Shown here: positions 5,061 through 34,075 of the stretch, piece after piece
Layout: the number at the start of each line of letters is the position of its first letter
Numbering within the stretch: position 1 is the first letter of the stretch
NCBI GenBank assembly: GCA_050013255.1
Contig: JBEKFP010000002.1
Span: forward strand, 640,001-704,000
Source: Candidatus Bathyarchaeia archaeon
GTDB lineage: Archaea > Thermoproteota > Bathyarchaeia > 40CM-2-53-6
Length of the DNA stretch: 64,000 bases
Reading direction: 5' to 3'
Translations under genes and position numbers: made by a program
The notes under the pieces: model-generated
The model's database searches: none
Seen by the model: only the letters and a program-made list of their open reading frames with translations
Told to the model about the DNA's origin: nothing

Positions 5061-5189
5061 TGGAGTTGGCGGCCATAGCTGAGGGCTAGGACCCGTTCCC
5101 ATTCCGAACACGGAAGTGAATCTCTCAGGCGATTCGGGTAGTAGTGTGTTCCGAAAGGCCATGCGAGCCCCGGACCGCTGCCGACTCCA
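5061..5189 (+). rRNA. rrf: 5S rRNA (stand-alone)
   Basis: GGCCATAGC...ACCCGTTCCCATTCCGAACACGGAAGTGAA conserved core; terminal helix TGGAGTTGGC/GCCGACTCCA; TATA-like TTTAATTA at ~5032. Confidence 0.93.
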
Positions 5190-28897: not shown

Positions 28898-29223
28898 GGC
28901 GATGGCAGGAGGATCGGGGAGCCAGCCGTTCCCTGTGACCCGAAATCGGCTATACGCGGGGACCCGTTAACCCGAGGGAGAGTCATCTCCTAACCGTAGT
29001 AGGCCTCCAAGGCCAACGATGAGACTCTGCCCCACCGGGCCAGCGCAGGGGAGAATCCTTCTGAAGGGAAGGATTCATCTCTTCATCGTCGAACCCGATG
29101 AGGCTCGGAAGAGAGCAGTCGTAAGGCGAGCGCCAAGGCGCTGATGGGATAACAGGGTGTAGGAGGTTGTGGAGAAACCGCTTAGGCGTGGAATGCCAAT
29201 TCATCGGGGATGCTGCCATCGCC
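28898..29223 (+). ncRNA. ffs: Archaeal SRP (7S) RNA
   Basis: Helix 8 GAACCCGATGAGGCTCGGAAGAGAGCAG; helix 6 with GNAR loop; terminal helix GGCGATGGCAG/CTGCCATCGCC; TATA TTTATAT at 28868. Confidence 0.92.
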
Positions 29224-33744: not shown

Positions 33745-33863
33745 TTCCAAAAAGTACTCTCCAAGATTTCGTTCGCTAAGAAAGCCGCACCGAGGCTTCC
33801 TGGGTGATTTTCTCGCCTGCACATCACCTTAATTTGCAACACAGGATTGTATGAGTGCCCGGT

Positions 33864-34075
33864 GCGGGGATACCAGAGCCAGGTCAAATGGGCGGGTCGC
33901 GTGCTACGCATGAGTGCGGCATGTGATGCTTACGCATGGCCACGCGCGCTACACTCAAGATTCGCGCTCGGCGCGAGGGTTCACGTGCGCGGGTGAGCTA
34001 TCCCGTGGCGTAGGCCTTCGTGGGTTCGAATCCGGGCCTTTGACAAGGTCGGCGAACGTCCCACTCCCCGCACCA
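33864..34075 (+). tRNA. tRNA-Leu(CAA) with three introns (30/31, 37/38, 59/60) and encoded CCA
   Basis: Exons 33864-33896, 33953-33959, 34000-34030 and 34059-34075 join into a complete cloverleaf; each junction forms a BHB-type motif. Confidence 0.92.

Follow-up and report, generated by a model that had tools for sequence, protein, structure and literature searches.

The feature described here occupies positions 33864–34075 on the forward strand of the window—that is, of the whole stretch of DNA that was analysed, 64 kb in length—and corresponds to positions 673864–674075 of contig C2 in its genome (G000); the sequence, read directly, is as quoted in an earlier note on the same DNA. We regard this interval as very probably a real, conserved, and functional tRNA-Leu(CAA) gene, present in single copy and interrupted by three BHB introns, with a 212-nt precursor that would be spliced by EndA and RtcB. 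The locus sits between two ORFs, and no sizeable ORF runs across the tRNA region.

When the four exons are joined (Table 1), the result is an 88-nt molecule that ARAGORN calls as tRNA-Leu(caa), with an acceptor stem of 7 bp, a D-stem of 3 bp, and an anticodon stem and T-stem of 5 bp each. The class II features of tRNA-Leu are present in this product—a variable region of 14 nt with a 3-bp stem, A73, and the anticodon CAA—and CCA is encoded at the 3′ end of the gene (34073–34075). By our own scoring, the cloverleaf of the spliced molecule reaches 39, among the highest values in the genome. In standard numbering the inserts fall at 30/31, 37/38 (the canonical site), and 59/60. The earlier note had proposed these three introns, a 7-nt micro-exon carrying the anticodon, and the Leu(CAA) identity, and all of this was borne out: ARAGORN accepted the product and an unbiased search for BHB motifs ranked the same introns top, while the micro-exon and the identity were confirmed by the ARAGORN call and by the alignment of orthologues.

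In its unspliced form the locus yielded no tRNA, either from ARAGORN run with and without intron mode or from Rfam in gathering-threshold and E-value searches, in agreement with the note's expectation that standard pipelines would miss the gene. Nor did ARAGORN call a tRNA anywhere else in the 64-kb window. Only two features of the window gave Rfam matches at gathering level, an archaeal SRP RNA (162 bits) and a 5S rRNA (84 bits), at 28902–29219 and 5065–5186, respectively. Upstream of the gene lies a TATA-box-like element, TTAATTTG, and an A/T-rich element of the TTAWTT type stands at the same distance upstream in most of the 20 orthologues from the genus; judged by its sequence, TTAATTTG is probably an archaeal promoter element.

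Table 1. Features of the tRNA-Leu(CAA) locus, in window coordinates
Feature	Positions	Strand	Description
TATA-box-like element TTAATTTG	33829..33836	+	−35 to −28 relative to the tRNA 5′ end
Exon 1	33864..33896	+	tRNA positions 1-30: acceptor 5′ strand, D-arm, G26, C27-G30
Intron 1, 56 nt, at 30/31	33897..33952	+	Central helix 33891-33894/33947-33950; bulges 33895-33897 and 33951-33953; inner helix 33898-33903/33941-33946
Intron 1 segment GCTTACGC (GCCTACGC in most relatives)	33928..33935	+	Complementary to variable arm 34008-34015
Exon 2, 7-nt micro-exon ACTCAAG	33953..33959	+	tRNA positions 31-37 (A31-G37); anticodon CAA at 33956-33958
Intron 2, 40 nt, at canonical 37/38	33960..33999	+	Central helix 33954-33957/33994-33997; bulges 33958-33960 and 33998-34000; inner helix 33961-33967/33987-33993
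Exon 3	34000..34030	+	tRNA positions 38-59: anticodon stem 3′ strand, long variable arm, T-stem 5′ strand, T-loop to A59
Intron 3, 28 nt, at 59/60 in the T-loop	34031..34058	+	Outer helix = T-stem 34020-34024/34060-34064; central helix 34025-34028/34053-34056; bulges 34029-34031 and 34057-34059; inner helix 34032-34035/34049-34052
Exon 4	34059..34075	+	tRNA positions 60-76: T-loop end, T-stem 3′ strand, acceptor 3′ strand, A73, CCA

Splice motifs of the three introns

All three inserts have a central helix of 4 bp with two 3-nt bulges, and every pair that the earlier note had assigned to these motifs is a standard pair. Intron 1 combines GGCG/CGCT (three Watson-Crick pairs and one G.U) with the bulges GG|T and AC|A; its inner helix measures 6 bp and its outer helix 1 bp, making it a relaxed HBh′ motif. 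In intron 2, the central helix is CTCA/TGAG (four Watson-Crick pairs), the bulges are AG|A and CT|A, and the inner helix has 7 bp. Its outer helix is the anticodon stem, which amounts to 1 bp in the genomic context and to 6 bp once intron 1 is out, such that the motif is HBh′ in the primary transcript and becomes hBHBh′ after the removal of intron 1. Intron 3 has TTCG/CGAA (again four Watson-Crick pairs) with the bulges AA|T and CG|T, and with an outer helix of 5 bp, formed by the T-stem, and an inner helix of 4 bp, it is a strict hBHBh′ motif.

We then considered how readily such motifs arise by chance. Across this genome, the strict BHB filter was passed by ~2.2e-4 of the (position, length) pairs (274,622 of about 1.23e9); given this rate, the fact that all three junctions dictated by the cloverleaf pass the filter is not due to chance. 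An unbiased search, which took each T-arm+acceptor+CCA of the genome and scored the BHB combinations lying upstream of it as cloverleaves, led to the same structure: among all combinations upstream of the T-arm and CCA of Leu(CAA), the top solution consisted of exactly these three introns. The spliced product would be unchanged if the boundary of intron 2 slid by 1 nt or that of intron 3 by up to 3 nt, and the placement at 37/38 and 59/60 is therefore fixed by the geometry of the BHB motifs.

In the unconstrained minimum free energy (MFE) fold of the precursor, the motifs of introns 1 and 2 do not appear. Folding under the constraint that all three motifs be kept gives -80.5 kcal/mol, compared with -96.9 kcal/mol for the MFE fold; being 16 kcal/mol worse, this structure would need a co-transcriptional or protein-assisted route.

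Two further ideas about the introns were tried and rejected. Intron transposition found no support, as local alignments of the three Leu(CAA) introns against the other introns among the 43 solved in this genome scored only 8–10 at best, which is noise, and thus no sequence kin of these introns was found in that set. A box C/D guide RNA within intron 1 was also discarded: inspected by eye, the box-like strings are weak, and four relatives have 41-nt versions of the intron without them.

Conservation of the exons and turnover of the introns

When 40 related genomes were searched at the DNA level, the locus was recovered from 20 species of the genus, a figure that includes the present genome. Across these 20 orthologues the exons are invariant save for A7/G7 in exon 1, either of which pairs with U66. 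The introns vary in sequence as well as in length, with intron 1 (41–60 nt) present in all 20 and intron 2 measuring 35–41 nt. Intron 3 is found in eight of the 20 species, in two length classes of 25–28 and 45–48 nt, and its inner helix remains paired despite different sequences (CCGG/TCGG, CCCGG/CCGGG, CCCAC/GTGGG, and TCCGG/CCGGA). The other 12 species lack it, with an uninterrupted T-loop precisely where the junction was predicted. Even the closest relative, which matches the first 194 nt of the query at 97% identity, is without intron 3, and thus this intron turns over quickly.

Outside the genus, we measured ten genomes of nine genera by exon matching, one from the same family and nine from other families of the order. 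These share an intron at 30/31 (17–30 nt), the same micro-exon, and an intron at 37/38; ACTCAAG is thus invariant in all 30 orthologues examined. Across lineages the central helix of intron 1 covaries in a compensatory manner, appearing as GGCG/CGCT, GGCG/CGCC, and CGCG/CGCG. The conservation across the order of the pair at 30/31 and 37/38, with its 7-nt exon, argues against a recent burst of intron gain. A third insert is present in six of these ten genomes (G030, G038, G039, G033, G026, and G035), where it lies not in the T-loop but in the D-loop, at about 17–21 nt in length; a seventh, G023, has an odd insert in the D-region. With the third intron in the D-loop in other families and at 59/60 in this genus, three-intron versions of Leu(CAA) arose at least twice.

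The same intron-exon junction was also found on contigs of Bathyarchaeia/Bathyarchaeota MAGs from peat and soil. A metagenome scan with the spliced junction recovered only intron-less genes of other organisms, and no spliced transcript of the Leu(CAA) locus was found in it. These genes, 16 tRNA-Leu(CAA) genes of unrelated archaea, have an identical anticodon arm in contiguous form, holding in one stretch a 23-nt sequence that spans both of the predicted anticodon-arm junctions. The best intron-less archaeal Leu(CAA) is identical to the spliced product at 76 of 85 positions.

The tRNA set of the genome and known multi-intron genes

The host genome comprises 2.46 Mb on 3 contigs at 50% G+C, and contains 46 sites with a T-arm, acceptor strand, and CCA, about a full set of tRNAs. 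Five of these are 3′ ends of the Leu type, which resolve to the anticodons UAA, CAG, UAG, GAG, and CAA. The earlier note had asked whether this is the only Leu-CAA gene; CAA occurs once among the five Leu-type genes of the genome, and no second copy was found among them. The codon it would serve is a common one: in 845 long ORFs, UUG accounts for 17.3 of every 1000 codons and is over twice as frequent as UUA.

The BHB and cloverleaf search resolved about 20 of the roughly 46 tRNA genes, with 43 introns solved. Among the 20 solved genes a single one is intron-less, Arg(CCG) at C2:260000-260077, and three—Lys(UUU), Pro(GGG), and Leu(CAG)—have four introns each; these carry the same kind of motif as Leu(CAA), which has fewer introns and is not an extreme case. 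Where the earlier note had set the gene against a rarity best known from Thermoproteales, the host instead belongs to the Bathyarchaeia, and three-intron tRNA genes are commonplace in this lineage. The Rfam tRNA model exceeded its threshold at 18 loci, compared with the 46 T-arm+CCA sites, and CCA is encoded in the genome after 19 of the 22 tRNA matches listed. Because more than half of the tRNA genes in this genome escape ARAGORN and the Rfam tRNA model, any tally of 'missing tRNAs' in such MAGs is an artefact.

Several side observations concern this wider set. Nearly the whole of it is interrupted (for example C1:291268-291457 on the reverse strand, C3:122293-122472 on the forward strand, and C1:524981-525175 on the reverse strand). 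Inserts at 59/60 in the T-loop occur in four other genes (C1:1381040-1381064, C1:1391227-1391244 on the reverse strand, C2:632842-632867, and C2:734609-734631 on the reverse strand), where CGAA or TGAA pairs with the T-loop and where there is no sequence similarity to intron 3 of Leu(CAA). Five 3′ ends consisting of T-arm, acceptor strand, and CCA have no plausible 5′ acceptor strand: C1:1306724 (+), C2:250593 (-), C3:41783 (+), C3:281362 (-), and C3:86741 (-). For four of them no 5′ strand was found within 600 nt, and for C3:281362 the lone candidate, at 537 nt, gives no credible cloverleaf. C2:250593 shares its 3′ half with Arg(CCG), and C3:41783 with Val(UAC). These orphan ends may belong to genes with acceptor-stem introns, or to split or permuted genes.

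Against this background we weighed two other readings of the locus. If it were a decaying pseudogene, the three inserts would be junk and no functional tRNA would be made; the blindness of standard detectors to the locus and the lack of a match to this gene in the transcript search of metagenomes would both suit such a reading. On the contrary, the exons have stayed invariant in 20 species while the introns drifted, each insert bears a splice motif, the gene is the sole Leu(CAA) gene found in a genome where UUG is a common codon, and nearly all other tRNA genes of the genome are interrupted in the same way, such that we consider decay very improbable. One might also suppose that only two introns exist and that the insert at 59/60 is part of an aberrant, enlarged T-loop, a view to which the dispensability of intron 3, missing from 12 of the 20 relatives, lends something. 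Yet that T-loop would measure 35 nt, the insert has the strictest motif of the three (four Watson-Crick central pairs, the T-stem as outer helix, and an inner helix), eight species preserve its structure through differing sequences, and an insert at 59/60 recurs in four other tRNA genes of the genome; the chance that this reading is correct appears negligible. The reading of the locus as a functional tRNA-Leu(CAA) gene with three introns is the one that we carry forward.

Much of what is seen at this gene has counterparts elsewhere. In Pyrobaculum islandicum, tRNA-Pro(UGG) has introns at 25/26, 37/38, and 56/57 (Sugahara et al. 2007/2008, as related in PMC4090602 and PMC8450103), and both 30/31 and 59/60 figure among the non-canonical sites catalogued in the literature (PMC4090602). 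The multi-intron genes of Thermoproteales resemble Leu(CAA) in combining one canonical with two non-canonical BHB introns, in the occurrence of relaxed HBh′ motifs, in a host endonuclease that, for Leu(CAA), is putatively of the same alpha2beta2 type, and in neighbouring introns that may need stepwise removal; they differ in that Thermoproteales are hyperthermophilic, whereas the host of Leu(CAA) belongs to a mesophilic lineage of peat and soil Bathyarchaeia. Among soil Asgard archaea (Atabeyarchaeia and Freyarchaeia), more than 90% of tRNA genes contain introns, with up to five in each (PMC11291895; bioRxiv 10.64898/2026.10.13.758758). Here the likeness extends to the wetland soil habitat, to the many non-canonical introns with several per gene, and to how many of them standard annotation misses, but the phylum is another one, and Bathyarchaeia are absent from the main text of PMC11291895 and of bioRxiv 10.64898/2026.10.13.758758. 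In the literature searched, we found no paper on the tRNA introns of Bathyarchaeia.

Published work already covers three-intron tRNA genes, introns at 30/31 and 59/60, relaxed motifs, and stepwise removal, and the Leu(CAA) gene alone adds little to it; its value is that of a clean, well-supported example from the Bathyarchaeia. Throughout an entire order of Bathyarchaeia, two introns continue to flank a 7-nt exon that bears the anticodon, even as a third intron is gained and lost; the locus thus lends itself to dating such gains and losses and to tests of the order of splicing.

Predicted splicing enzymes and the likely order of intron removal

Two homologues of EndA are encoded in the genome, one near 171.5–172.1 kb of C2 and one near 301.9–302.5 kb of C1, each with an N-terminal (PF02778) and a catalytic-type (PF01974) Pfam domain. 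The homologue of 190 aa has crenarchaeal endonuclease chains as its best PDB matches and aligns end to end with the top one, 3p1z_B of Aeropyrum pernix (E 1.5e-38), including the stretches IDHAPFIV and VRK with the His and the Lys. We take the matched PDB chains to be the catalytic alpha subunits of the heterotetrameric enzymes of Aeropyrum, Sulfolobus, and Pyrobaculum. Residues about 36–54 of the 190-aa protein (GKPVGIPKPKPEQEFKAPL) align with GQPLDVEKPRGADFEGPL of A. pernix with a single gap of one residue, and this stretch is presumably the crenarchaeal lineage-specific loop in alpha that is tied to a broad substrate range. The homologue of 187 aa is diverged, being 33% identical to the 190-aa protein over 78 aa; it reads LRRLISIV at the stretch of the catalytic His, a residue that, by eye, seems to be missing. 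Regarding the type of EndA, a point that the earlier note had raised, the presence of two paralogues is clear, and sequence comparison together with inspection by eye suggests a putative catalytic and structural pair, which would fit the alpha2beta2 type. Endonucleases of the alpha2beta2 type have been linked to non-canonical introns, multiple introns, and introns with relaxed motifs (PMC4090602).

The ligase RtcB is present as well (PF01139, 494 bits), its match falling in two pieces. At C1:110968-113778 on the reverse strand, profile positions 1–60 and 49–426 are matched ~1.4 kb apart within one open frame of 1039 aa, an arrangement that suggests an intein.

With these components, processing might proceed as follows. 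The gene's own TATA-like promoter would drive a precursor of ~212 nt plus leader and trailer, and an EndA of the alpha2beta2 type, assembled from the catalytic and the structural paralogue, would cut within the 3-nt bulges of the three BHB motifs, releasing introns of 56 nt (from 30/31), 40 nt (from 37/38), and 28 nt (from 59/60). RtcB would then join the four exons, the 7-nt anticodon exon among them, into the 88-nt tRNA reading UUG. The most likely order would have intron 3 leaving independently and intron 1 leaving before or together with intron 2.

The reason for this order lies in the central helix of intron 1, which is built from G25, G26, C27, and G28; because it uses these nucleotides, the motif and the anticodon stem are mutually exclusive, and intron 1 would thus be removed before or with intron 2. 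That splicing is probably ordered had been put forward in the earlier note from the incompatibility of intron 1 with the anticodon stem. This incompatibility holds, but the order is not forced, given that intron 2 has an inner helix of its own, of 7 bp; ordered splicing of the Leu(CAA) precursor is plausible on the evidence of its predicted helices. Within the genus, the inner helix of intron 2 has 3 bp in three species and 5–8 bp in the other 17, making the order likely rather than forced. In other genera it has 0–2 bp in nine of ten orthologues and 3 bp in the tenth, and recognition of intron 2 before the removal of intron 1 is probably impossible there. The order of splicing thus appears more strongly implied in the other families than in this genus. 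Stepwise or ordered removal of neighbouring tRNA introns is already accepted, and is built into tRNAscan-SE 2.0 (PMC8450103).

A stricter version would hold that splicing is an obligatory cascade, in which intron 2 becomes recognisable only once intron 1 is gone. Several observations lean this way: the central helix of intron 1 and the anticodon stem cannot both form at once, intron 2 has an outer helix that grows from 1 to 6 bp when intron 1 leaves, the near-absence of an inner helix in nine of ten orthologues from other genera makes the motif there dependent on the outer helix, and multi-intron tRNAs are recognised as requiring iterative removal (PMC8450103). On the other side, intron 2 in this genome presents an inner helix and a 4-bp central helix, that is, a relaxed HBh′ motif of the kind reportedly cut by alpha2beta2 enzymes (PMC4090602), and all three BHB motifs use disjoint nucleotides, such that they can be drawn simultaneously and can coexist on paper. 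A strict cascade is therefore possible for this precursor, though we hold it to be somewhat doubtful, and the preferred reading remains that of an order that is likely and not obligatory.

One element of intron 1 stands apart from its splice motif. Across the genus, the 3′ half of the intron hardly varies, its conservation reaching far past what the motif requires, and it holds an exact 8-nt antisense of the variable arm (Table 1); in this genome one C of the block has changed to U, with a wobble pair kept. The block pairs with the variable arm in the unconstrained MFE fold, and it is missing from the short intron 1 of other genera. Archaeal leucyl-tRNA synthetase uses the variable arm of tRNA-Leu. 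Masking of this arm in the precursor could in principle act as a chaperone or checkpoint—holding the anticodon stem open for cleavage of intron 1, setting the order of removal, and blocking the charging of unspliced precursors—but we think such a role quite unlikely. The block may be a relic of intron growth or an aid to intramolecular folding.
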